Origin: Candidatus Saccharimonadota bacterium
Lineage (GTDB): Bacteria > Patescibacteriota > Saccharimonadia > Saccharimonadales > Saccharimonadaceae
Length of the DNA stretch: 32,000 nt
Reading direction: 5' to 3'
Assembly: GCA_001029695.1 (NCBI GenBank)
Contig: CP011211.1
Location: 480,001 to 512,000, forward strand
Below are positions 7,597 through 31,137 of this stretch, piece by piece (position 1 is the first letter of the stretch; each line of letters begins with the position of its first letter). Below the pieces are notes generated by a model. The model worked only from the letters and a program-made list of their open reading frames with translations. It made no database searches and was not told the origin of the DNA. A program made the translations under genes and the position numbers.

Positions 7597-7645
7597 CCAA
7601 GAAAAAACGTCGACCGGTAGCGAAAATGTCGACGTTTTTTCTTGG
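7597..7645 (-). terminator. 18-bp perfect inverted repeat / intrinsic terminator after tRNA-Lys
   Basis: CCAAGAAAAAACGTCGAC-13 nt-GTCGACGTTTTTTCTTGG. On the minus strand a GC core stem is followed by TTTTTT. The right arm overlaps the encoded CCA end of the tRNA by 3 nt. Confidence 0.65.
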
Positions 7646-7719
7646 AGGGACCACTGGGGCTTGAACCCAGGACACCCTGCTTAAAAGGCAGGTGCTCTAA
7701 CCAGCTGAGCTATGGTCCC
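7643..7719 (-). tRNA. tRNA-Lys (anticodon UUU), CCA encoded
   Basis: Reverse complement folds as a cloverleaf: GGGACCA-TA-GCTC-AGCTGGTTA-GAGC-A-CCTGC-CTTTTAA-GCAGG-GTGTC-CTGGG-TTCAAGC-CCCAG-TGGTCCC-T-CCA (77 nt). Confidence 0.95.
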
Positions 7720-7822: not shown

Positions 7823-8302
7823 CTAGTGCTTCTCTTTGCTAATTTTAGGAGTCTTTACAAACAAAAGATCAGCAAGGGCGAGTAAAATACCTGCCGTGAT
7901 AATCCACACTCGATACTCTACCAAAATATCAAACAACCTCTTGCCATCACCTTCAAGGACAAGCGCGCCACCAAGTGGCTCAAGCATAAATGCGAGCGCA
8001 AGGAGCGAAAATACCAGTGCCCCAATTGCCCGCTGCAACTTACTACTATAGGTTGGTCCACTAAAAAGCAGCACTACTGCAGGAAGCAAGATGATAGCAG
8101 CAGCAACGACACTACTCAGAGGCGGCGCAACCAACTCCACCCCCGCTTGCTGCACGATAGGCACCACGTCAGGCGTCCACAAACCACTAAGAGTCGCCCC
8201 TGCAGTCAACGCAAGACCGAGTACACCAAATCGACGCTTGGTAAAAAAGGTCAACGCAAATAGTACAGTGAGTAAAATCAACAAAACAATGGCAACATTC
8301 AT
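7823..8302 (-). CDS. hypothetical integral membrane protein (about 4 TM)
   Basis: 159-aa ORF, strongly hydrophobic. Starts 5 nt after the DUF192 gene stop. No family recognised. Confidence 0.6.
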   Translation of the reverse strand: MNVAIVLLILLTVLFALTFFTKRRFGVLGLALTAGATLSGLWTPDVVPIVQQAGVELVAPPLSSVVAAAIILLPAVVLLFSGPTYSSKLQRAIGALVFSLLALAFMLEPLGGALVLEGDGKRLFDILVEYRVWIITAGILLALADLLFVKTPKISKEKH

Positions 8303-8307
8303 GCTAT

Positions 8308-8793
8308 TTATTGTACTCCTGTCGTATCGACTTCAAATGTCGCCTTTGAAGAAAGTTGGATATTACTTCGTTCGATTGAACCGGCTGGAAACTCCAACAC
8401 GAACCGCGCTACTTTCTTCGGAGTAAACCGTGTTTCAGGGTAGCTATCTGGTTGCGCGTCTTTAACAAGATGCACTACCCTCTTCTCGCTATCGAGCCAC
8501 ACTATATCAATCGGAAATTTCATATCTTTCATCCAGATAGACCACTTGTCTGATTCTGGAAAAACAAATAAACGACCCTCTGTTTTATCGAGTTTTTCGG
8601 TACCAGATAGGCCTTTGTCGCGATTTTCGGGTGTGCTAAGAATTTGCACCTGATACGTACCCCGTCCAATCTGGACAGGTATCTTCTCGGCAGATGCTTG
8701 CTGCTGATCGATAAGCACTCTGATGCCTGCCCACGCCATGGCGCCCACAACAGCAATAACAACAAACCACCAGAGGCCGTTGTTACTTCTCAT
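8308..8793 (-). CDS. DUF192 (COG1430)-family protein with N-terminal membrane anchor/signal
   Basis: 161 aa. N-terminal TM LWWFVVIAVVGAMAWAGI. Core GRLFVFPESDKWSIWMKDMKFPIDIVWLD matches the conserved DUF192 pattern (M.nt..pLDi.fid). Confidence 0.75.
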   Translation of the reverse strand: MRSNNGLWWFVVIAVVGAMAWAGIRVLIDQQQASAEKIPVQIGRGTYQVQILSTPENRDKGLSGTEKLDKTEGRLFVFPESDKWSIWMKDMKFPIDIVWLDSEKRVVHLVKDAQPDSYPETRFTPKKVARFVLEFPAGSIERSNIQLSSKATFEVDTTGVQ

Positions 8794-8846: not shown

Positions 8847-9758
8847 CTATGCGCCGACTTTATCTTTTTTATTGCGGCGTTTTGCATTCATCTCGACATA
8901 TTCTATAACAGCCGTTGCTACATCTCTTTTCGTCACTTTTTCAACCCCAAAGCCAGGGCTTGCGTTCACCTCAAGCACGAGTGGTCCTCGATCGCTACGC
9001 ATCATATCGACACCTGCAATATTCAGTCCCATTGCCTTAGCAGCTTTCACTGCAGTGCGACGCTCCTCTTCAGTCAGCTTAATGACCACTCCCTCACCAC
9101 CCTTATGTAAATTTGAGCGAAAATCATCATCCAGGCTCTGTCGCTTCATACTTGCAACAACACGACTACCAACAACAAACGCACGAATATCCGTCCCAGC
9201 TGATTCTTTGACAAACTCTTGAAGCAGGATATTCGTCCCATCTTCATTTGAAAGATAAAAAGCTTGTAGTACCGATTTTGCAGCCTTCTTTGTCTCAGCG
9301 AGCACGACACCATTTCCATGTGTACCACGAGCAAGTTTAATAATAATCGGTGTTCCGCCAATCTTTTCCAAAAGATCATCGATGTCAGCTGAATTACGAG
9401 ACACCACTGTTTTCGGAATCCCTACACCAGCCTTAGCAAGTAACTGCATACTTCTAAGTTTATCTCTCGATCGATTAATCGCAATTGAGCTTGACACGGT
9501 ATAGACACCCTGCATCTCAAGCTGGCGGACGATCGCAGTGCCATATCGAGTCATATTAGAAGCAATACGAGGAATAATCGCATCAAAAGTACCGAGATCT
9601 TCACCTCTATAGCTAACTGTCGGATTATTCTGTTCAATCGACGCATAGCAATCACGATATTTAATAACGCGAACTTCATGACCACGAGCCTTAGCGACCT
9701 CTTTGAGACGCTTCGTCGAATAATTGCCAGAACCGTTGGAAAGAATTGCAATTTTCAT
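8847..9758 (-). CDS. rimK: RimK-type alpha-L-glutamate ligase (ATP-grasp)
   Basis: 303 aa. Colinear with E. coli RimK as I recall it: MKIAILS..., FDAIIPRI, DKLRSMQLLA, GVVLAET, DIRAFVVG, DFRSNLHKGG, AGVDMMRSDRGPLVLEVNASPG. Basic C-terminal tail. Confidence 0.9.
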   Translation of the reverse strand: MKIAILSNGSGNYSTKRLKEVAKARGHEVRVIKYRDCYASIEQNNPTVSYRGEDLGTFDAIIPRIASNMTRYGTAIVRQLEMQGVYTVSSSIAINRSRDKLRSMQLLAKAGVGIPKTVVSRNSADIDDLLEKIGGTPIIIKLARGTHGNGVVLAETKKAAKSVLQAFYLSNEDGTNILLQEFVKESAGTDIRAFVVGSRVVASMKRQSLDDDFRSNLHKGGEGVVIKLTEEERRTAVKAAKAMGLNIAGVDMMRSDRGPLVLEVNASPGFGVEKVTKRDVATAVIEYVEMNAKRRNKKDKVGA

Positions 9759-10264
9759 AATATTATTCCTTTATCTTTAACATATCTTTGGTGGAAATCG
9801 TACGGACCCTCTGCAAGTTTTCTATTCAGCTGCTTTGTTCTCGCGTTAGACGGCGATCGTCTAACACCTTTTGAAACATCAACTAAAAACTTACCGCTCA
9901 TCGTTCTTCGACCGATAAGAATCTTATAGGTACTATTTGTTCGATCCGATAAATTAAACAATGCTCGTATTCTTCTGCCAGCAATCGTAACCGTAAATTG
10001 AGTTCTATAGCGAACCTCCGACTGACCATTTGAACTCTTGACCTGCGCAACCGAAAAAACCGTCCGTTTAAAAAGCTTGCCGTTGTAATATGGCGAGCCT
10101 TCACCAAATAAAGAAAACCGCAATACTCCATCCCGACCAATCCGAATATTACTTGCCCATATCGCCGAACTATCTGCACCAGTGTCAAGCTTTGCAGGCA
10201 CATCAACCGCCCGCCTACCGATAGACACACGCTCAACTATACCGACGGTCGTTAACTTTGTCAT
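9755..10264 (-). CDS. retropepsin-like aspartic peptidase of the 'ATP-dependent zinc protease' family (PF05618/COG4067; RimB-like)
   Basis: 169 aa. VPAKLDTGADSSAIWA (DTGA active-site motif), VKSSNGQSEVRY, and a later ILIGRR flap-like motif. ATGA overlaps with both neighbouring genes. Confidence 0.8.
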   Translation of the reverse strand: MTKLTTVGIVERVSIGRRAVDVPAKLDTGADSSAIWASNIRIGRDGVLRFSLFGEGSPYYNGKLFKRTVFSVAQVKSSNGQSEVRYRTQFTVTIAGRRIRALFNLSDRTNSTYKILIGRRTMSGKFLVDVSKGVRRSPSNARTKQLNRKLAEGPYDFHQRYVKDKGIIL

Positions 10265-11172
10265 ACGCTAGTCTGCCTCCGTAGTATTAAGCGGATCATG
10301 TCTGCGTACAGCGCGGTCTTCTCCTCAACAAATGAACCCGACGATATCTGAGGTCCATTATTTACTTCGAGTAAATAAGATACGCCAGTCTGAGAGTTAA
10401 TCATCACATCCACGCCCGCAACCTGTATTCGTAGCACCTCGGCTGATCGTCGAGCCATCGCAAGAATGTCTTCACCGATCTGATCAAGTGGAACTACCTC
10501 TGCAATTCCACCCTGGGACGTATTATTGAGATGAGATGACCCATCGCCAACCCTACGTATAGCAAGTACAGGCTTATCTGCCATTACTAAAACTCGTAGA
10601 TCACCGTCGTTAGGAATGAACTCTTGAAGCAAAAAAAAGACGTCCGAATACTGCTCTACAATGGACCGTATCTGTTCAGGAGACGACACGACAAAATTAA
10701 GCCGTCCTTTTGAGCCAAAATTATCCTTCAATACAGCCCTCTCTCCGAGCTCGGCAAAACGACGCTCCATCTCCTCAACTGGACCATAAAATGTTCTAGG
10801 CCAGTTCCTCACCCCTCCAAACCATGATGCAAATTCTGAACTCAATTTATTATCTGGCAGTAGTCTATTCAAGTAGGTGTCTGTGTAGGAAATATTAAAA
10901 TACTCACAGTACGCAGTAATCGCATGAGCCTCGACCGCATAAGATCCAACGTGACGGAATATCACCAAATCGAAGTCACGAATATCGAACCGTTTTTTAG
11001 GATGATAAATAGCGATCGACTCTGAATCGAGCTCAAAAAACAATTCCGATATCTCACAATTCTCAACAATCAAATCATCTTCCAATAATTGTCGAACATT
11101 ACCAGCAAATATATCAGCCAGTTCGAGAGTTCTCTCAGTTTTAGCGCGTGCAATAAGTAAAACCTTTTTCAT
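10261..11172 (-). CDS. divergent RimK-like ATP-grasp ligase (second copy)
   Basis: 303 aa. VLKDNFGSKGRLNFVV, LLQEFIPNDGDLRVLVMADKPVLAIRR, NNTSQGG, VAGVDVMINSQTGVSYLLEVNNGPQ follows the order of ATP-grasp motifs in RimK-type enzymes, but with low similarity to the rimK at 8847-9758. Confidence 0.75.
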   Translation of the reverse strand: MKKVLLIARAKTERTLELADIFAGNVRQLLEDDLIVENCEISELFFELDSESIAIYHPKKRFDIRDFDLVIFRHVGSYAVEAHAITAYCEYFNISYTDTYLNRLLPDNKLSSEFASWFGGVRNWPRTFYGPVEEMERRFAELGERAVLKDNFGSKGRLNFVVSSPEQIRSIVEQYSDVFFLLQEFIPNDGDLRVLVMADKPVLAIRRVGDGSSHLNNTSQGGIAEVVPLDQIGEDILAMARRSAEVLRIQVAGVDVMINSQTGVSYLLEVNNGPQISSGSFVEEKTALYADMIRLILRRQTSV

Positions 11173-11190
11173 CTATTCGATTATAACATT

Positions 11191-12171
11191 TTATTGGGTA
11201 AAATTCAAGTTATTATCTGTCGTATCGACGATCTTGTCGACGATCCAGTGGTTATCTTCGTTACGAGCTGATACATACATCTTAAGGCTCGGCGAGGCGT
11301 TACATTCATTGAACCAATAGTGGCCCTTACTAGCCTCCACTTGGTGGTCCACGATAAACATATCAATCGCCACAAAACCAGCACCAACTGTTGTTGCAAA
11401 CCTCTCGGCAAGCGCTACGTAGGACGCATCGACGTCGCCTCGTAATTCATATAATGAAGCACCTTTAGAGACGAGAGTAGCCCCTGATAATATACGCACT
11501 TCCCCTATCCCAGGGATATCTTCGCTCATAACAACATCTCCAATAAGGTCTACCGTCCATTGTGGGTATATAGCATCACTCAAGATCAGGTCACGTCGTG
11601 TGCTATTTTCTCGTGAGACCAATTGACGCACCGTACTGACTCCATCGCCAATGACTTGAGGGCGTTCTCGTCGCAATACAGACACAACCGCTCCTTCTAG
11701 AATCGTAAAGCGATATTCTTCGCCACCAACCTGCTCTTGAATGATTGCAACTGGAGACTCCCGGTAAGCATGCTTTAGCGCCTGAGGCATTATGTCCATC
11801 GAATTAACTCCAATTGTGACGCCATGCGACTTATAGCTATCGAGCGGCTTCACGACAACCAGTGGATACTGCTTCAAAAAAGCATGCAACTCCTCCATGC
11901 CCATTGAGCGATCAACATACATAGTCTTCGGCGTGCGAATACTTAAGCTACTCGCAAGCTCGTAAGATAAACGCTTATTGTCAGAAATCTGGTGAATAAA
12001 AGCACTATTCATCGGATAGGCCATTTTTTTGCCCGTCACCCAAACTCGACCGTTCGGAGCGATAATACGTATGACTGACTGGCCACTTATCTTAGCATCT
12101 TCTACGATGTAGCCCCGTTCACGTAATCGTGCATACAGACCACCACGTTCGCTTTTTTTAAATATACTCAT
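11191..12171 (-). CDS. ATP-grasp ligase resembling the cyanophycin-synthetase-type ATP-grasp module (third copy)
   Basis: 326 aa. VVVKPLDSYKSHGVTIGV, IIQEQVGGEEYRFTIL, RPQVIGDGVSTVRQLVSRENSTRR, GFVAIDMFIV, WFNECNASPSLKMY. The xVIGDGxSTVxxL segment is characteristic of CphA-like ATP-grasp domains. Confidence 0.7.
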   Translation of the reverse strand: MSIFKKSERGGLYARLRERGYIVEDAKISGQSVIRIIAPNGRVWVTGKKMAYPMNSAFIHQISDNKRLSYELASSLSIRTPKTMYVDRSMGMEELHAFLKQYPLVVVKPLDSYKSHGVTIGVNSMDIMPQALKHAYRESPVAIIQEQVGGEEYRFTILEGAVVSVLRRERPQVIGDGVSTVRQLVSRENSTRRDLILSDAIYPQWTVDLIGDVVMSEDIPGIGEVRILSGATLVSKGASLYELRGDVDASYVALAERFATTVGAGFVAIDMFIVDHQVEASKGHYWFNECNASPSLKMYVSARNEDNHWIVDKIVDTTDNNLNFTQ

Positions 12172-12373
12172 CTACTCATCGTACTCGATTTCAGGCACCA
12201 TTGCTACATACTCATGGTTTGTTTGAGCGAAGCAATGCCCTTTAACGCCTCGTGTGGTCCGTTAAGTACTTGGTGGTCGTGCCGTCTTAGTACTAGTCAG
12301 CACTATATCGCCAATTACTCAATCTTCTCGCGTACATCAGGCTACAGAATGTCTTACAAAAACTCAAGCAATT

Positions 12374-12402
12374 GAAAACCCCGCAACATCGAATTGCGGG
12401 GT
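12374..12402 (-). terminator. intrinsic terminator after the 203-aa gene
   Basis: Minus strand: ACCCCGCAA-ttcgatg-TTGCGGGGT followed by TTTT. Confidence 0.75.
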
Positions 12403-12435: not shown

Positions 12436-13047
12436 TTAGTTCGGTCGCCCACGTCTCCTTCGACGCTCTCTTGCCTCCTGAAGCCTGACCTTAGCATCTT
12501 CAGCATCCTGCGCACGAGCCGCAGCGAGCGCGCTGGATTCAGCAAAAAAGACGGTCGATCGATGATGCTCGGCGATCGAAGGGCAAATCTCCCGGAGGAG
12601 ACGAAGCACCTCTGAAAGCTCTTTCTGGAGATGATCACTTCTCGAAGCAATCGATACAACGTACTCCTCGAAAGAAGTTGAATCCTCATGACGACGCCAC
12701 TTACCCAGCACCCATGACCTCGTATTGACCTCATGCGGAAATGATCGCAGCCCATGCTCTAACGTCAGATACACATGTGTACCTACGCCAAGCGCTTCAT
12801 TTGCGACGAGCACCCAGGCGGCAGTTCTTTCGCCAGCGCATTCAATCTGCTCAGGCCGAATACTATTGTAGTTAAGCCGCGAGACATATGGGTCTGCTCG
12901 CAGTGCCGAAATTACTGACGGCACAATAGCATCGATCTCCTGCCTCAAAGCAGCGATCGAAGGCAGCGGCGTGAATTCTTCGGCATCACGTCGTCTCTGT
13001 TCTCGATCTGCGTCAAGTCCAAGCAAATAGGCATTAGTCGGATCCAT
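12436..13047 (-). CDS. hypothetical protein, monocistronic orphan with Arg-rich C-terminus
   Basis: 203-aa ORF, the longest of three overlapping ORFs here. Has its own promoter and terminator. SD GAAGGGA upstream. Ends QEARERRRRRGRPN. No family recognised. Confidence 0.6.
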   Translation of the reverse strand: MDPTNAYLLGLDADREQRRRDAEEFTPLPSIAALRQEIDAIVPSVISALRADPYVSRLNYNSIRPEQIECAGERTAAWVLVANEALGVGTHVYLTLEHGLRSFPHEVNTRSWVLGKWRRHEDSTSFEEYVVSIASRSDHLQKELSEVLRLLREICPSIAEHHRSTVFFAESSALAAARAQDAEDAKVRLQEARERRRRRGRPN

Positions 13048-13125: not shown

Positions 13126-15744
13126 CTAGAAGTCTTCTGGAAGAATATCTGGATTAATGGATAGTGCAATACGTTCAAACGCATCCTTACGCTTATCTAG
13201 TGCGCCGCTGAGGTTTGCATTCTTGACGACGCCAAAGATTGCGCGTTCAAGCTTGTCTCGCTCTTCAGCACCAAACAATCCTGGCTCACGCTCTAGAAGC
13301 GAAGCGAGATGCTCAAGTGTATCCTTGTCGGCTTCAACTAGCCCCTTTGAGCCGAATGTATTGCTCTTTACGGCATCGACAAATGCATTCTTAAGTCCGT
13401 TAGAGCCGAATCCTCCCACAACACCCTGGCCGAGCTTATCAAGCAATCCAGCACTAAACTCTCCAGGCTTCTTAGAGTTAGATTTGAGGCCATCAACAAA
13501 TGCAGTTCGCAAGAATTCATCTGATGTCTCACTAAGATCCATGATAGTAGAAAGCTTATGGATTGCTCCAACATCTGGTCCAGACGCAATCTTTTTGATT
13601 GCCACTTCTCGGATTTCAGGATTATTAGCAATACCGCGCACCTCTGCAATACCGCTTGCCAGCTGGAGTAATTCATCGGATTTGAGATTCTTTACGTCAA
13701 TCATGAGCTCAAGGTTCTTGAGACCTTCAGAGCGCTCATTCACACGAGTAGAGAGTGCGCTTGCTACTGCACGTGGCTTGCCGCTAGCTAAATCAATACC
13801 CGCCGCAACCGCCTGCAGATGGTCGCTATTAGTGATGGCATTAGATAGCTGTCTGTTAACGACATAGTCCGCTGACTGCGCCGCACGAGCGTTCATAGCG
13901 ATGTCCTGAGAACTCTGCTTAATCTCTTGGTTGTACGACTCATAGAGTCCATTACTGAGGCCGGCTTTTGCGTTTCGCTTCTGAGTTTCGTCAAGTGCAT
14001 TAATAGCTTGCGCTGACATATCCGCTGCATATGCACTTTCATGTGCAGCACGGGCCATGCGATTGTTGCGACGTCCGACAAATGTCGCTCGTTCACCTGG
14101 AACAATCCCCTGATCATCCATCTCATTAAGCCGCTTCGTATAATGCGCCTCTGAGCGCTTTTCGACAGCAGCCTCGTAATCCTTCAGTTTCGCTTCTTTC
14201 TCATGCTTCTTGTCATGATCACGAAGGGCATAGTTACGAAGGAATTGACGTCTATTGTATATACCTTTTGCTCGATCTTCCGACGCCTGGCTAAGACGCT
14301 GCTTGCGCCTCTCATTAGCCTTGCCTTGACTCCAGTTTCGCGTTCGATCGATAAGCCCCTTGTTTGGATTATTAACAATACCAGCAAGCTTGCCGAGTAG
14401 TCCGCCACTGAATTTAATCAGCATAGGCGTAATTACAATTGGCGCCACCTGAACAAACATACCCAGGAGAACAACGTTCATATTTGAGGCAGTCTGCACA
14501 ATGAGACTTCCCGCTAATTGCGAACCACCAAATATAACCGAAAATATAGGAAAAAGAAGCAGCATTGTCATTAGTAAGTCTTTCCACTTATCGAACCATT
14601 TCTCAGTGTTTGGTAAGAGATACGCGACAAAAGCAAGTGGGGCAACCACAATCAAAATAACGATGAGTGCTTGGCGAGCTGCAAGCACGAGAAGCGCTAC
14701 AAGAACAGCCAATAGCACTCCCAGAAGGAATGGAAGAAGGAGATAAATAAGCCCCGTTACACCCACGCCAGCAACACTCGACAAAGCAAGCTTGGCGGCA
14801 ATTCCACCGGCAACCGCCATCGTTCCGCCGGATAATATAAAGCTCGTCATACTATCCCACGAGATAACTTCGTCGTTCGAGGCACTGTTTGCTCCAAGAA
14901 TATTACCCCTCATGTCAATAAACATCTGCTGCAGTGAATGACCCAGTATATTAGAGATATCGACAGCACCCGCTACGATTACATACGACAGATTAACAAG
15001 TATCGCCGCGATAATAATTCGAGGTAGCATCTTTTTAAGGCTGTAGTTATTAAGACCGCCGCCTGTCACTTGTGAGTAGATGACGATAAGAAATGCTAAC
15101 ACAAACGCAATATTCGCAAATCCACGCATTACTTCCCACATACGATAAATTGGCGTCGTAGAATCAAATGATAGCGGCTTCACGGTAAGATAATCTTTGA
15201 GAAGATCGAAGATAATGTCCATGCCGCTAGCGAGAAAGCGCATCGTTGGACAAATCACCCAACCGATTCCTTTGATCGCACAGGCTGTTACCTCCCCTTG
15301 GTCACTATCATTTCTGCCCGTCGTACCAAACGAGCGGTCTACTTCTCCGCTCTTTGGCTCTAGTCCAATTTGTCGAGCTGTTTGTGGATTTGTGTACGTA
15401 GAAGGAGGACTAAAAGTAAAGCTCTGATACTGAACCGTCGTTGCGTCATTGACATTTGTTCCTGGAGGGAAATACATCACCATGGCACTGTTTTGGTCCG
15501 GCTGCTTATAGACATACACACTAGACCCCGCAGGTATACCAGGGATAGACGCTGTCTCTTTTTCATAGCGTTGACCCTCATAGGTCACAACATCACCGTC
15601 CCAAGCAGCATCAACAGCATAGGCTGTTTGAGGAGAAACAGTAATTGCCCATAAGAGGGCCGACATGATAATGACGGCAAGTGCGGTGGCAATTTTACGG
15701 AGAGAAAAATCGCCGATTGGATTCAATCGGAACACATCCCACAT
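13126..15744 (-). CDS. large polytopic membrane protein, possibly TrbL/VirB6-like, with a long C-terminal cytoplasmic domain
   Basis: 872 aa. Signal/anchor, ~150-aa ectodomain, then 6-8 TMs including QALIVILIVVAPLAFVAYLLPNTEKWFDKWKDLLMTMLLLFPIF (reminiscent of TrbL/VirB6 cores). A ~400-aa charged C-terminal region carries an internal duplication: AFVDGLKSNS / AFVDAVKSNT. Confidence 0.65.
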   Translation of the reverse strand: MWDVFRLNPIGDFSLRKIATALAVIIMSALLWAITVSPQTAYAVDAAWDGDVVTYEGQRYEKETASIPGIPAGSSVYVYKQPDQNSAMVMYFPPGTNVNDATTVQYQSFTFSPPSTYTNPQTARQIGLEPKSGEVDRSFGTTGRNDSDQGEVTACAIKGIGWVICPTMRFLASGMDIIFDLLKDYLTVKPLSFDSTTPIYRMWEVMRGFANIAFVLAFLIVIYSQVTGGGLNNYSLKKMLPRIIIAAILVNLSYVIVAGAVDISNILGHSLQQMFIDMRGNILGANSASNDEVISWDSMTSFILSGGTMAVAGGIAAKLALSSVAGVGVTGLIYLLLPFLLGVLLAVLVALLVLAARQALIVILIVVAPLAFVAYLLPNTEKWFDKWKDLLMTMLLLFPIFSVIFGGSQLAGSLIVQTASNMNVVLLGMFVQVAPIVITPMLIKFSGGLLGKLAGIVNNPNKGLIDRTRNWSQGKANERRKQRLSQASEDRAKGIYNRRQFLRNYALRDHDKKHEKEAKLKDYEAAVEKRSEAHYTKRLNEMDDQGIVPGERATFVGRRNNRMARAAHESAYAADMSAQAINALDETQKRNAKAGLSNGLYESYNQEIKQSSQDIAMNARAAQSADYVVNRQLSNAITNSDHLQAVAAGIDLASGKPRAVASALSTRVNERSEGLKNLELMIDVKNLKSDELLQLASGIAEVRGIANNPEIREVAIKKIASGPDVGAIHKLSTIMDLSETSDEFLRTAFVDGLKSNSKKPGEFSAGLLDKLGQGVVGGFGSNGLKNAFVDAVKSNTFGSKGLVEADKDTLEHLASLLEREPGLFGAEERDKLERAIFGVVKNANLSGALDKRKDAFERIALSINPDILPEDF

Positions 15745-15847: not shown

Positions 15848-18736
15848 CTATTTGCTCTTTTGCGTCCTCATCAAACGCCAAATCACAAACCCAATTATAA
15901 GTAATCCTAAGAAGCCAAACGCCAAAAAGACGATATCTCGCAGGAAGTAAAGAATGGCAAGCGAAGCAGCACTAAGCCCCCACCACAACGCCCAACTTTG
16001 CTGCCTCATGGCACCAAATATAAGCAATCCAACATGTTCTACCAAGAACAACAGAGCGTAGCCCCCTCCGCTACCCAAAGCATATAGCGCCGTCGAACCC
16101 GTCACCATCGCCATGGCGATGATACATCGTTGCTGTGTCACCGCGTTCCTTAAGAATCCAGCAAGAACAATAGTTATTGCCCAGTAGTGTGCATAAAAAA
16201 CAATATTCAGCTCAGGCAATAACACACCGAGCACGCGCTGCACACCAAGTGTCGCCAAATACACAGCAGCCTCAATGATGCCGTACATTTGTCGTCGGTA
16301 TCCCTCGACAGCCATAATGCCAGCTCCAGCAATAAGCGTCATCGCGGCGGCGATAGGAAGCGGGAAGAATTGCGTTACAATCGCAAATGCAAGGACGACA
16401 CCTGTCGAAACAAGTAAAATATCCGCGCGTTGCGTATCGTGTCTTGAACGTAGTGTCCAATACAGCCCATAAAATAGCATCGCCGTAATCCATGAAATGC
16501 CGATAATCGCCCAGGTCGAATCAAGCCCGAACAATGACCATATTCGCAATCCTGCAACAACCAGAAGAGCATTACCCAGTGCAATTACAAATGGCTTTTC
16601 TTCGATATATGAAGCTACCCACGCAATACCCGCGCAAATCAACAACACTCCAATCCCTTCACCCCCCGAAAGCCCAAGCGACAGTAGTAATGCGATAACA
16701 GTAAAGATAGGGTACGCAACAACTGCGAGACGACGAGCGTTATTCTTCTCTCCTCCAAACAAGCTTGCCTGGCGACGAATCAGTATTGTGATCATTGCCG
16801 CAACAAGCAACAATCCACATGTGAGCTGAGTAACCAAAGTCTGCTGCCATATACCGCCAATAATCGTCACACCGATGCTCATTTGTGTTACAGCAAACGC
16901 CAGGAATGCTCTATTGTATTGTCGGTTATGTGACTGCACGAAGAGCATAATCATATGAAGTGTCGCTCCAACACCTCCAATAAAAAGTGGTCGCCAAGCC
17001 GCTTCAAGATCGATCGTCCAGCTGAGCGCAGTAAGTGAAATCAGCGTCATGATGGACGCAGCAAGTTGAGCGTAGACCTGACGCCAAAGGTACGAAGCAA
17101 GCAGCATATGAAGAGTCGCGACACCAAATATACCTGCGATATACCCCGAATTGCTGCTCATAAGTGCAAGTAGTAGAGATAGTCCGAGTAAAATCATAGC
17201 ACTTATCATGACAAACAACCGCAATGACGTTGATCTCGTGCGCAAGCGATAATACAGCACATGCATGACCCATGCCATACACATAAACAAGATAGCTATC
17301 GCTGCGTACGACCAGACAGGATCAAGCACTTGACGCGTCGTTATGAGCGTCACAAACACCAAAGAAGCCAATCCTACATATCCGTATCGTGCATCTCGCA
17401 GACGAAGCGCAGCTGTGAGCCCCGTAAGTCCAATCAATAATAATGCAAACACTGTAAGGAGCGATGAGTGTGCATCGCTTTGCCAGAATAGCACCGCACC
17501 AAGTTGCAAGCCAAACAGACAGCATATCCACCACTGCTCAACACGACGACGTAGCGTCGTCTGCTTCACTCGTAGCAATGAGTACACCTGCTGTAATGAC
17601 GCTAGAATAAATGCATACCCACCAAACGTAACAATATGATCACTTAATACACCCCAACCAACCAACAGAAGTGTCACATGACCCAACGCACGGATCGCCG
17701 ACTCATACTCAAGACTCCTTGTCTGAAGCCATGCGACAATATAATGGAGTGTTGCAAGGGCAAATAAAACTTGATAACTAACGATATTCATCTGACTATG
17801 CACAAATAGGCTCGCAATAAGTACCAATGGCGTCACAAATTGACCCGTTTGTTCAATTGGCTCTCGAAATACCTCTGGCACCCACTGAGGTTTGACACTT
17901 CCGAGCAGTCCAGCCCCTATTGAAACAATAATAAGCAACGCTAATTGCCAAATAATAAACGTACTCACCGTAGCACCCGCTGCAGCTGCAAGCGATAAAA
18001 GGAATGCCATCGTGAGATAGGAGACGAGCTGACTTTGCAGCTTTATAGCAGCGACAGAGTATGCGATAAGGCCGATAATTGACGTAAGCGCCCAAGCGGC
18101 AACAGAACCGATCTCCGTGTAGCTATATAGAGCGAGCCCCGCAAATGGAACCAATGCCAGGCCAGTACCAAGAAAAGCCATGCCCGCTGGACGCAGCCGC
18201 TCACTACCGGCGTATAGCCCCATACCAACACCGTAAAATACAATGACGATCAACCACACGCCGATCAGCTTCACAATATCAGCAATATCAGTGGCGATAA
18301 ATGCCACTCCAGCAGCAATCAAAAGAAAACTCGCCATATAGAGCAAGATGTTAAGATTACGAATCGAACGCTGCTCTTTTTGAATACTCTCATCGAGAGG
18401 AGGAGCAGCAACCGCTCGCTCTTCTATTGGAGCTACTTCTTGCGCTTCAGAAGTATTGTTCGTAGATTCGTCATACAACACAGCCTCTGCATCGTACACT
18501 GAAGGTTCTAGCGCAGAAGATGATTCAACGACACCATACTTGCCCTGATCAATGAGCGACTGCAATGCCTCGCGGTCAAGCTTTGGTTGTGCCATTTCAT
18601 CTTGAAGCTTTTCGCCAAACGCGCGGTAACCATCCCAATAGCCTCTGCCGTACTGATCATCAGATTCGGGTGATTTGGATCGCACCGCAACCGCGATGAC
18701 GATACCAATAATAATTACAAATAATAAGAATCCCAT
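15848..18736 (-). CDS. very large polytopic membrane protein (more than 20 hydrophobic segments by eye), function unknown
   Basis: 962 aa. N-terminal TM, ~120-aa acidic soluble segment, then almost uninterrupted TM helices to the C-terminus. SD AAGGGAG upstream. General architecture recalls DUF2339-type proteins, but this is not verified. Confidence 0.65.
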   Translation of the reverse strand: MGFLLFVIIIGIVIAVAVRSKSPESDDQYGRGYWDGYRAFGEKLQDEMAQPKLDREALQSLIDQGKYGVVESSSALEPSVYDAEAVLYDESTNNTSEAQEVAPIEERAVAAPPLDESIQKEQRSIRNLNILLYMASFLLIAAGVAFIATDIADIVKLIGVWLIVIVFYGVGMGLYAGSERLRPAGMAFLGTGLALVPFAGLALYSYTEIGSVAAWALTSIIGLIAYSVAAIKLQSQLVSYLTMAFLLSLAAAAGATVSTFIIWQLALLIIVSIGAGLLGSVKPQWVPEVFREPIEQTGQFVTPLVLIASLFVHSQMNIVSYQVLFALATLHYIVAWLQTRSLEYESAIRALGHVTLLLVGWGVLSDHIVTFGGYAFILASLQQVYSLLRVKQTTLRRRVEQWWICCLFGLQLGAVLFWQSDAHSSLLTVFALLLIGLTGLTAALRLRDARYGYVGLASLVFVTLITTRQVLDPVWSYAAIAILFMCMAWVMHVLYYRLRTRSTSLRLFVMISAMILLGLSLLLALMSSNSGYIAGIFGVATLHMLLASYLWRQVYAQLAASIMTLISLTALSWTIDLEAAWRPLFIGGVGATLHMIMLFVQSHNRQYNRAFLAFAVTQMSIGVTIIGGIWQQTLVTQLTCGLLLVAAMITILIRRQASLFGGEKNNARRLAVVAYPIFTVIALLLSLGLSGGEGIGVLLICAGIAWVASYIEEKPFVIALGNALLVVAGLRIWSLFGLDSTWAIIGISWITAMLFYGLYWTLRSRHDTQRADILLVSTGVVLAFAIVTQFFPLPIAAAMTLIAGAGIMAVEGYRRQMYGIIEAAVYLATLGVQRVLGVLLPELNIVFYAHYWAITIVLAGFLRNAVTQQRCIIAMAMVTGSTALYALGSGGGYALLFLVEHVGLLIFGAMRQQSWALWWGLSAASLAILYFLRDIVFLAFGFLGLLIIGFVIWRLMRTQKSK

Positions 18737-19893: not shown

Positions 19894-19931
19894 ATTATAA
19901 TAAATTAGCACTCAATATTCAAGAGTGCTAA
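19894..19931 (-). promoter_or_regulatory. perfect CIRCE operator (19905-19931) with embedded dnaJ promoter TTGAAT-17-TATAAT
   Basis: TTAGCACTC-aatattcaa-GAGTGCTAA matches the CIRCE consensus exactly. On the minus strand the spacer holds TTGAAT, with TATAAT 17 nt further on and the ATG 7 nt after that. Confidence 0.9.
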
Positions 19932-25154: not shown

Positions 25155-25181
25155 TTAGCACTCTACTATATAGATTGCCAA
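25155..25181 (-). promoter_or_regulatory. second, degenerate CIRCE-like operator at the start of the predicted dnaK 5' UTR
   Basis: TTAGCACTC-tactatata-GATTGCCAA. The left arm is perfect. The right arm has 2 mismatches to the exact complement. It lies immediately downstream of the predicted -10 box. Confidence 0.55.
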
Positions 25182-25188
25182 TACATTC

Positions 25189-25227
25189 ATTATACATAAA
25201 TTAGCACTCTCATGTCAAGAGTGCCAA
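25189..25227 (-). promoter_or_regulatory. CIRCE operator (25201-25227) with embedded dnaK promoter TTGACA-18-TATAAT
   Basis: TTAGCACTC-tcatgtcaa-GAGTGCCAA. On the minus strand the spacer holds TTGACA (25213-25218), with TATAAT at 25189-25194. Confidence 0.85.
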
Positions 25228-31097: not shown

Positions 31098-31137
31098 AGT
31101 ATAGCGCATTTTGGCACTCTTTTCAATTGAGTGCCAA
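31098..31137 (-). promoter_or_regulatory. CIRCE variant (31111-31137) with embedded hrcA promoter TTGAAA-17-TATACT
   Basis: TTGGCACTC-ttttcaatt-GAGTGCCAA is a perfect palindrome. On the minus strand the spacer holds TTGAAA (31121-31126), TATACT is at 31098-31103, and the ATG follows 6 nt later. Confidence 0.8.

Follow-up and report, generated by a model that had tools for sequence, protein, structure and literature searches.

To our knowledge, no bacterial system other than RimK/RimB is known to add amino acids to a ribosomal protein, and to trim them, as a dynamic signal; the textbook case of a non-ribosomal amino-acid polymerase is cyanophycin synthetase. RimK adds alpha-glutamates to the C-terminal end of ribosomal protein S6 and also makes free poly-alpha-glutamate, and RimB, a retropepsin dimer, cleaves stretches of at least five glutamates, binds RimK and stimulates polymer synthesis (PMC11957791, PMC10092738). 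RimB-RimK hybrid proteins exist as well, for example DP2392 of Desulfotalea psychrophila (PMC11957791). A four-gene cassette that combines RimK/RimB and cyanophycin-synthetase pieces was analyzed in a 32,000-nucleotide (nt) stretch of DNA from a Candidatus Saccharimonadota bacterium (assembly GCA_001029695.1, contig CP011211.1, positions 480,001 to 512,000), here called the window; in relatives, these pieces were found fused to the same protease. The cassette consisted of two accessory ligases (G1 and G2), a peptidase (P) and a RimK (K). The genomes of its Saccharibacteria hosts measure about 0.7 Mb, and such hosts can ill afford idle genes.

A full-text search of a literature library returned no description of this system and no paper that connected Saccharibacteria with RimK or with ATP-grasp enzymes, in keeping with the initial annotation, which had proposed the cassette as a candidate undescribed system. 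One 2026 preprint merely noted 'cyanophycin synthetase' and S51 annotations in some Saccharimonadia metagenome-assembled genomes. The explanation that we favor, and hold to be probable though far from certain, is that six genes, from G1 through the gene of a downstream protein with four transmembrane segments (4-TM protein), form one operon in which a RimK/RimB module and two accessory ligases all act on the same non-ribosomal peptide chain.

Cassette enzymes and their active sites

The open reading frame (ORF) list of the window placed the cassette at 8847–12171 on the minus strand in the order G1 (11191–12171, 326 amino acids [aa]), G2 (10261–11172, 303 aa), P (9755–10264, 169 aa) and K (8847–9758, 303 aa), as the initial annotation had reported. 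The spacing it gave was also borne out by reading the sequence: the G2 stop and P start overlapped as ATGA (GTATGACA), the P stop and K start shared a 4-nt ATGA overlap (TTATGAAA), and G1 and G2 were separated by 18 nt. A terminator scan predicted no terminator between the cassette genes. The coupled expression that had been expected fits the ATGA overlaps, the terminator upstream of G1 and the absence of any within the cassette.

K had the profile of a bona fide RimK (poly-alpha-L-glutamate/S6-glutamate ligase). Its score on NF007764 was 343.8 bits, against a curated equivalog cut-off of 331; it contained the Rimk_N (PF18030, E 5e-36) and RimK ATP-grasp (PF08443, E 3e-58) domains, and matched Pseudomonas aeruginosa RimK (7qyr) with 330 bits, so that its earlier description as an orthodox RimK was upheld. 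In P. aeruginosa RimK, poly-glutamate is bound by S7, R8, S14, R64, S68, R189, R211, H215, R216 and N262 (PMC10092738). Alignment to 7qyr showed that S7, S14, R64, R189, R211, H215 and N262 were identical in K, whereas Asn replaced R8 and S68 (next to S67) and Lys replaced R216; K is a genuine RimK that retains most residues of the poly-glutamate chain site. Across the Saccharibacteria loci, the identity of K was 65–90%, and that of G1, G2 and P just 26–74%, from which it follows that the core enzyme K is strongly constrained and the accessory enzymes are fast-evolving.

P was predicted to be a cytoplasmic retropepsin-like aspartic peptidase of the RimB/RloA family. Its PF05618 score was 56.6 bits (cut-off 27, E 3.3e-15), with DTGA at residues 27–30 and LIGR, of the hydrophobic-hydrophobic-G-R type, near the C-terminus, which agrees with the PF05618-type DTGA peptidase first proposed. 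Both motifs were kept in 11 orthologues and 5 fusions. P fell below the equivalog cut-offs of RimB (NF052261, 42.5 vs 200 bits) and of RloA3 (54.6 vs 210 bits, its best NCBIfam match), which points to a PF05618 family member that is the equivalog of neither. A hydrophobicity scan revealed no signal peptide, transmembrane or hydrophobic segment in P. The RloABC operon of P. aeruginosa (PMC12239564) likewise combines a peptidase of PF05618 with an ATP-grasp ligase and a membrane protein; however, RloA is secreted, whereas P has no signal peptide. In addition, the window cassette differed from RloABC in having no RloB-type inactive-transglutaminase 7-TM protein and no match of G1 or G2 to TIGR02291 (RloC).

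G2 was a divergent ATP-grasp ligase of the RimK/LysX fold. It passed PF08443 (E 5e-15, 56 vs a cut-off of 21), did not reach the cut-off of the RimK family model TIGR00768 (73.4 vs 143.4 bits) and had no Pfam match to Rimk_N (PF18030), so the label of a divergent RimK-like ATP-grasp protein stands. A Foldseek search with the AlphaFold2 (AF2) model (predicted local distance difference test [pLDDT] 91.6) gave RimK as the best match, led by the RimK-RpsF complex 5zk6 (E 4e-16) with 5zct and 4iwx (~1e-15), and then LysX/ArgX. RimK, LysX and ArgX all modify protein C-termini. The ATP and Mg ligands K149, Q183, D191, R193, R207, N217, D255, E269 and N271 were invariant in the G2 family. The basic loop FRSNLHKGG of RimK (R211, H215, R216) was replaced by a conserved SSHLNNTSQGG, in which R211 corresponds to L215 (H214 adjacent), H215 to S and R216 to Q. 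The G2 family has so far been found only in Saccharibacteria; some of its homologues showed faint TTL (PF03133) matches.

G1, the first gene of the operon, encoded a stand-alone ATP-grasp ligase of the clade formed by the CphA G domain, the GshF C-domain and Ngg. On the cyanophycin synthetase model TIGR02068, it matched positions 206–469 only (E 2.6e-30, 105 bits vs a cut-off of 850), and it scored 84 vs 425 bits on GshF and 82 vs 569 bits on Ngg. The G1 family profile matched CphA1 (E 1.4e-34) and GshF (E 2.5e-31) in the PDB. For the AF2 model (pLDDT 91), the top 18 Foldseek matches were all CphA1, CphA2 or GshF, and the template-modeling (TM) scores to TeCphA1 were 0.70–0.72, the best (0.72) being to its substrate-bound form. 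The initial label of a CphA-like ATP-grasp protein held as far as the CphA G domain was matched, but G1 was about equidistant from CphA-G, GshF-C and Ngg (105, 84 and 82 bits). In a profile hidden Markov model (HMM) check of the two extra ligases, G1 (105/850, 84/425, 82/569) and G2 (73/143) reached the curated cut-off of no characterised enzyme, an outcome in favor of the initial annotation. The HMM scores of the cassette proteins were far beyond chance. Characterised members of the G1 clade (the CphA G domain, the GshF C-domain and Ngg) activate the alpha-carboxylate at a peptide end and add one amino acid.

The catalytic residues K108, R154, R168, D270, E289 and N291 were present in G1, and R154, R168, D270 and E289 were invariant in the family alignment. 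Index-anchored alignment to SuCphA1/TeCphA1 (7lg5) paired K261 with K108, R309 with R154, D431 with D270, E450 with E289 and R458 with K297. In CphA1, E215, H267 and N394 serve for the beta-Asp-Arg primer and the Asp substrate (PMC9427784). These specificity residues were not kept in G1, where E215 was replaced by Q61 (Q/E/L/C/D/R/V in the family), H267 by K114 (variable) and N394 by Leu (L/M/I in the family). With the general catalytic residues kept and the cyanophycin-specific ones not, G1 is best read as a third, uncharacterised branch of the CphA-G/GshF/Ngg clade. R168, which equals the Asp beta-carboxylate binder R323 of CphA, was considered as a marker of an acidic substrate and rejected, because the glycine-adding GshF has the same Arg.

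Compared with CphA1 and CphA2, G1 was a full-length homologue of the G domain, the backbone-elongating ATP-grasp unit, and kept the residues for the acyl-phosphate (R309 to R154), Mg (D431, E450) and the incoming alpha-carboxylate (R458 to K297). G1 thus had the fold and catalytic residues of a G domain, without the three-domain N-G-M architecture and below the TIGR02068 cut-off. Unlike in CphA, no N domain and no M domain occurred in the window, the window operon contained no Mur-ligase gene, and the residues for the Arg branch and for reading Asp were not kept. Instead, RimK and a retropepsin-like peptidase always accompanied G1. Cyanophycin clusters are not reported to hold these partners, and PMC10206079 mentions neither 'RimK' nor 'ATP-grasp'. 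GshF-C and Ngg belong to the same clade, gave similar scores and join the alpha-carboxylate of a short peptide or acyl-amino acid to an amino acid; G1 differs in being stand-alone, far under both cut-offs and linked to RimK and the peptidase. GshF has a Met at the position of CphA R458, whereas G1 keeps a basic residue there.

More than 100 clusters (50% identity) of stand-alone G1-type proteins were retrieved by a full-library profile search. The nearest G1 relatives outside this family were proteins of 700–1500 aa with two to three tandem G1-like ATP-grasp domains (P0223, P0229, P0236, P0261, P0262, P0264, P0277, P0280 and P0287), most of those scanned having a C-terminal acylphosphatase and one having N-terminal tetratricopeptide (TPR) repeats; no name for this family was found. 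Because the nearest relatives of G1 carry tandem ATP-grasps, G1-like domains evidently work in series.

Two other assignments were rejected. PADLOC gave 0 matches to defence systems for seven proteins, and a role as a graspetide maturase (a type of RiPP, a peptide made by ribosomes and modified after translation) found just 16–30-bit matches to TIGR04187 and TIGR04185 and no precursor gene.

Conserved linkage and peptidase fusions

The survey covered 35 fetched loci, in which about 16 distinct arrangements were annotated; all related genomes were Saccharibacteria. An identical operon was present on 21 contigs from several samples, including one of assembly GCA_016000075.1. The same G1-G2-P-K cassette was found in L012, with a G1 58% identical to that of the window, and in L011 and L022 it appeared as G1-[P-G2 fusion]-K. 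Additional enzymes occurred in L009, L013 and L014 (MATCAP-G2'-G1-P-K), L021 (G1-G2'-LAL-type ligase-P-K), L007 (S51 peptidase, G1, an unknown protein of 300 aa, LAL-type ligase and P-K) and L015–L020 (G1-(353-aa protein)-M-P-K, where M is a stand-alone Mur-type ligase). L017 carried G1-G2'-ATP-grasp_3-K', L034 GNAT-[G1-P fusion]-K and L035 GNAT-MATCAP-[G1-P fusion]-K. G1 was absent from L030–L032 (G2-P-K), and in L028 and L029 [G2-P fusion]-K lay behind RNase III, an unrelated context.

K occurred in all of the approximately 16 arrangements and P in 15, being missing only from L017, where K' (11396–12298) had lost the Lys that binds ATP, the Glu that binds Mg and both the DIR and the RSN motif and was thus a pseudo-enzyme. 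K and P are a near-constant core, and G1 is accessory, being absent from close relatives that keep G2-P-K. The linkage of the extra ligases to rimK and the peptidase, which the initial annotation had wanted surveyed in relatives, was kept across the arrangements examined, with P missing only in L017.

Fusions of the peptidase showed three independent architectures, all with DTGA kept: P-G2 (L011, L022), G2-P (L028 and many clusters) and G1-P, the last with a C-terminal PF05618 domain in six 50%-identity clusters including L034 and L035. These fusions tie both extra ligases functionally to P, beyond the evidence of gene order. Since G2P-K recurs after RNase III (L028/L029), the link of G2P to K is more than synteny as well. 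Like the described RimBK hybrids, relatives of the window encode peptidase-ligase fusions, and P-G2 (L011, L022) shares their order with the peptidase N-terminal. In contrast to those hybrids, the genes are separate in the window, the fused ligase of the relatives is G2 or G1 and a separate true RimK always stands alongside, and the orders known from the hybrids include neither G2-P nor G1-P. The cassette shares with Pseudomonas rimABK a true RimK, a cytoplasmic PF05618 DTG peptidase translationally coupled to rimK, and the expected logic in which a ligase would add residues and an endopeptidase would trim them. It differs in its two extra, mutually dissimilar ligases, the absence of RimA, the 42 vs 200 bits of P on RimB, and the fusion partner of the peptidase in relatives, which is G1 or G2 and not RimK.

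Across the loci, the accessory positions were occupied by G1, G2, an M-domain homologue, other ATP-grasp ligases, MATCAP, an S51 peptidase or GNAT, and the slot from G1 to P was refilled by amide ligases and peptidases and little else (the one 300-aa unknown protein of L007). The M-type ligases were stand-alone proteins of 425–434 aa that matched positions 545–860 of TIGR02068, the CphA M domain, with 171–179 bits vs 77 for MurE. Sister loci thus have an M-domain homologue where the window has G2, and one has an S51 peptidase, of the family of cyanophycinase and PepE, as further likenesses to CphA1 and CphA2.

G1 and M formed a split, N-domain-less CphA-like pair in environmental Saccharibacteria, always directly 5' of P and K (L015:5160–8576, L016:7989–10439, L018:7965–11320, L019:7980–11353 and L020:7977–10490). 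The 353-aa protein between G1 and M (L015:6189–7250, L018:8958–10022 and L019:8983–10047) had no Pfam, NCBIfam or PDB sequence match; its profile matched that of G1 weakly and in an ATP-grasp-like manner (hhalign 68%), with KPNGG and E-x-N-A-E-P motifs.

G1 could also have a function of its own beside that of the others. G2-P-K would then be the Rim module of Saccharibacteria, and G1 would make a small soluble peptide, for example a di- or tripeptide that acts as an osmolyte or thiol like the products of Ngg (NAGGN) or GshF, or would be what is left of a split CphA whose M partner was lost in this lineage. The near-equal scores of G1 on CphA-G, GshF and Ngg (105, 84 and 82 bits) suit this idea, as do the close relatives that keep G2-P-K without G1 and the M homologues that accompany G1 in L015–L020 and not in the window. 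GNAT adjoins G1-P in L034 and L035, which recalls the GNAT and ATP-grasp architecture of Ngg. However, G1 was fused to a RimB-like peptidase in six representative clusters, K adjoined G1 in every G1 locus examined, and in the window G1 and G2 share a transcription unit, 18 nt apart; two separate functions therefore seem unlikely to us.

Downstream of K, the window contained the gene of a DUF192 protein (8308–8793, minus strand; PF02643, E 6e-24) with an N-terminal membrane anchor, its single transmembrane segment spanning residues 6–24, and the gene of the small 4-TM protein (7823–8302, minus strand), with four hydrophobic segments and a Lys-rich C-terminus. Both had been noted on the same strand downstream and indeed adjoined K, after a terminator-free gap of 53 nt and a further gap of 5 nt, respectively. 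The 4-TM protein had no Pfam or NCBIfam match, and no transporter family was matched. Of the 16 arrangements, 10 had the DUF192 gene behind K, among them L034 and L035 with their different flanks, and a 4-TM homologue followed K, directly or past DUF192, in all examined arrangements but L028/L029. The two genes are probably co-transcribed with K. Because both stay with it in L034 and L035, they are probably part of the unit; because they are absent from L028/L029, they are not obligatory.

These two genes would have a direct role if the ligases built a polyanionic peptide for the cell envelope, such as a poly-Glx-type wall component or a decoration of peptidoglycan side chains, which the 4-TM protein would transfer across the membrane and DUF192 process outside. 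Their position after K in most arrangements, including those with differing flanks, is compatible with such a product, RloABC pairs an ATP-grasp ligase with a membrane protein and related peptidases, and mycobacterial walls contain poly-alpha-L-Glx (as cited in PMC11957791). Yet P has neither a signal peptide nor a transmembrane segment, the 4-TM protein matches no transporter family, L028/L029 have G2P-K and neither membrane gene, and the M-like proteins are far nearer to the CphA M domain than to MurE. An envelope polymer is accordingly judged very improbable.

Proposed chain and its acceptor

In the favored explanation of one shared chain, K would add alpha-linked glutamates to a C-terminal carboxylate, the acceptor being the S6 tail or a free glutamate chain. 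G1 and G2, which can each act while joined to P, would probably add residues other than those of K, extending or capping the chain and giving it a mixed composition, in line with the assembly line or mixed tail that the initial annotation had suggested. P would be a RimB-type retropepsin dimer, physically attached to a ligase, that cuts the chain, and its cleavage could serve editing or turnover or provide fresh chain ends. Side-chain carboxylates might be the points at which the M-type ligase of sister lineages introduces branches, while terminal residues or dipeptides might be taken off by MATCAP or S51 peptidases there. Should the ligases differ in the residues that they add, a novel biopolymer or a novel kind of protein tail would result. 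Stand-alone ligases of the G and M types would make compact, engineerable parts for polyamide production.

By a rough estimate, a protein tail, with S6 as the first candidate, has a little under an even chance of being the acceptor, a free peptide or polyamide a sizeable but smaller one, and something else a slight one. The leaning toward a protein tail comes from the extreme conservation of K, the structural neighbors of G2, the MATCAP family and the coupling to dnaJ. The leaning toward a free chain comes from the characterised relatives of G1, all of which act on non-protein peptides, from the M homologue, the S51 peptidase and GNAT, and from the RimB-stimulated synthesis of free poly-glutamate together with the downstream membrane proteins. 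An encoded acidic substrate was sought among the window ORFs of at least 25 aa, which were scanned for acidic C-termini and D/E runs, and only a 36-aa ORF inside another gene was found. The mini-ORF MVPEIEYDE (9 codons, 12172–12201, minus strand), which has an acidic C-terminus and whose stop abuts the ATG of G1, was rejected as a primer peptide and ascribed to chance, because none of 14 other loci had it 5' of G1, not even L012, which is 58% identical.

A simpler account would be ordinary S6 glutamylation, in which K and P are the counterparts of Pseudomonas RimK and RimB, and G1 and G2 either duplicate the glutamate ligase or, without catalysis of their own, regulate or scaffold P and K, with no mixed product. 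K is a RimK at equivalog level with 65–90% identity kept, RimB is known to bind and regulate RimK, the top structural neighbor of G2 is RimK complexed with RpsF, and the R211/H215/R216 basic loop is missing from G2, all of which would be expected under this account. However, the ATP and Mg ligands of G1 and G2 were invariant across deep divergence, which would be unexpected for scaffolds, and the ATP-grasp clade of G1 is not that of RimK. In relatives, the slot also holds chemically distinct enzymes (a side-chain ligase of the Mur type, an LAL-type ligase, a carboxypeptidase and GNAT), which argues for different chemistry rather than redundancy. Plain S6 glutamylation is thus regarded as a rather poor prospect.

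Several points weigh against one shared chain. We infer its substrates, order of action, acceptor and product. The S6 tail is a putative acceptor in this genome, and rpsF was not found in the window or the 35 fetched loci with approximate E. coli and B. subtilis S6 sequences as queries. G2 lacks the Arg of the RimK R-x-N motif and, judged from its alignment, might be a weak or non-catalytic partner. L017 keeps G1, G2 and a third ATP-grasp protein intact despite its degenerate K and the absence of P, so the accessory ligases are perhaps not strictly dependent on the product of K. G1 is dispensable in L030–L032 (G2-P-K only) and G2 in L034 and L035 (G1P-K only), and the three ligases therefore need not share one chain. 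Moreover, Saccharibacteria are highly syntenic, with dnaJ upstream and comEC downstream also conserved, so gene order alone is weak evidence.

Since most Saccharibacteria loci have dnaJ and comEC on either side of the region, the genes might even be functionally unrelated neighbors held together by synteny. The three fusion architectures, the ATGA overlaps, the presence of the module in other contexts (L028, L035) and the loss of P together with the catalytic residues of K in L017 make this hardly credible. These same features, with the refilled slot, are the reasons for reading the genes as one system. The gene identities, the operon structure, the conserved linkage, the fusions and the intact active sites are established.

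A bolder version of the shared-chain explanation is offered only tentatively and has a modest chance of being right. In it, modular ligases and peptidases would write and erase a heteropolymeric, possibly branched peptide, under HrcA heat-shock induction in many lineages. This peptide would be either a counterpart of the tubulin-tail code on S6 or another protein, or a cyanophycin-like polyamide made by a split synthetase (a G-type with an M- or RimK-type ligase), for which P would supply primers in place of the CphA1 N domain. In the tubulin-tail code (TTL/TTLL ligases with MATCAP/VASH and CCP peptidases), several ATP-grasp ligases and peptidases likewise write and erase acidic C-terminal tail residues, by analogy only, and the relatives L009 and L035 carry a PF08014 MATCAP-family peptidase in the cassette; the cassette ligases, however, share with TTL no ancestry beyond the ATP-grasp superfamily.

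Operon boundaries, regulation and flanking genes

An intrinsic-terminator-like hairpin (12378–12402, minus strand; a 10-bp stem with 6 GC pairs, then a T-run) was located 34 nt 3' of the stop of an upstream 203-aa ORF. It is strongly terminator-like and closes the upstream unit, and the operon begins at G1. At the other end, a tRNA-Lys(UUU) gene (7643–7719, minus strand), called by ARAGORN and Rfam, was followed on its 3' side by a hairpin and T-run at about 7601–7640 on the same strand, read by eye as ACGTCGAC...GTCGACGTTTTTT. The terminator scanner missed this hairpin, probably since its loop is longer than 8 nt. One further call, at 8080–8068, lay inside the 4-TM coding sequence and was weak (5-bp stem). 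The tRNA-Lys gene with its hairpin and T-run is the probable downstream end. With a terminator-like hairpin 5' of G1, none inside and a hairpin after tRNA-Lys, the transcription unit most likely spans G1 through the 4-TM gene.

Four CIRCE sites (controlling inverted repeat of chaperone expression, the HrcA operator) were found in the window (19905–19931, 25155–25181, 25201–25227 and 31111–31137), against 0.01 expected. They were placed 5' of dnaJ and of dnaK (two copies) and in the first ~50 bp of the predicted hrcA ORF (TTG start). Control of the window operon by CIRCE/HrcA was rejected, as no CIRCE occurred 5' of G1; three inserted genes and a terminator separated dnaJ from G1. In L016, L018 and L019, the dnaJ stop overlapped the G1 start (TAATG), with a CIRCE ~20 nt 5' of dnaJ in L016 and L018, and in L030 a CIRCE-dnaJ unit was followed 82 nt later by G2. 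Because CIRCE-dnaJ is directly coupled to G1 or G2 in L016, L018 and L030, the module is probably under heat-shock (HrcA) control in many Saccharibacteria. The locus could offer a handle on the stress response of epibiotic Saccharibacteria, because several species have it immediately after a CIRCE-controlled dnaJ, to which it is translationally coupled.

The upstream 203-aa ORF (12436–13047, minus strand) had no family match, ended in an Arg-rich C-terminus (RERRRRRGRPN) and occurred only in the closest relatives. Two large minus-strand ORFs between dnaJ and the operon (13126–15744 and 15848–18736, encoding 872 and 962 aa) had no Pfam match and were lineage-specific insertions compared with most other Saccharibacteria loci. 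The central part of the 872-aa protein was hydrophobic by eye, and it may be a membrane protein. GC skew was negative in all 1-kb bins of the window, and nearly all genes lay on the minus strand; for these reasons the window probably falls within one replichore, with its genes co-oriented with replication.

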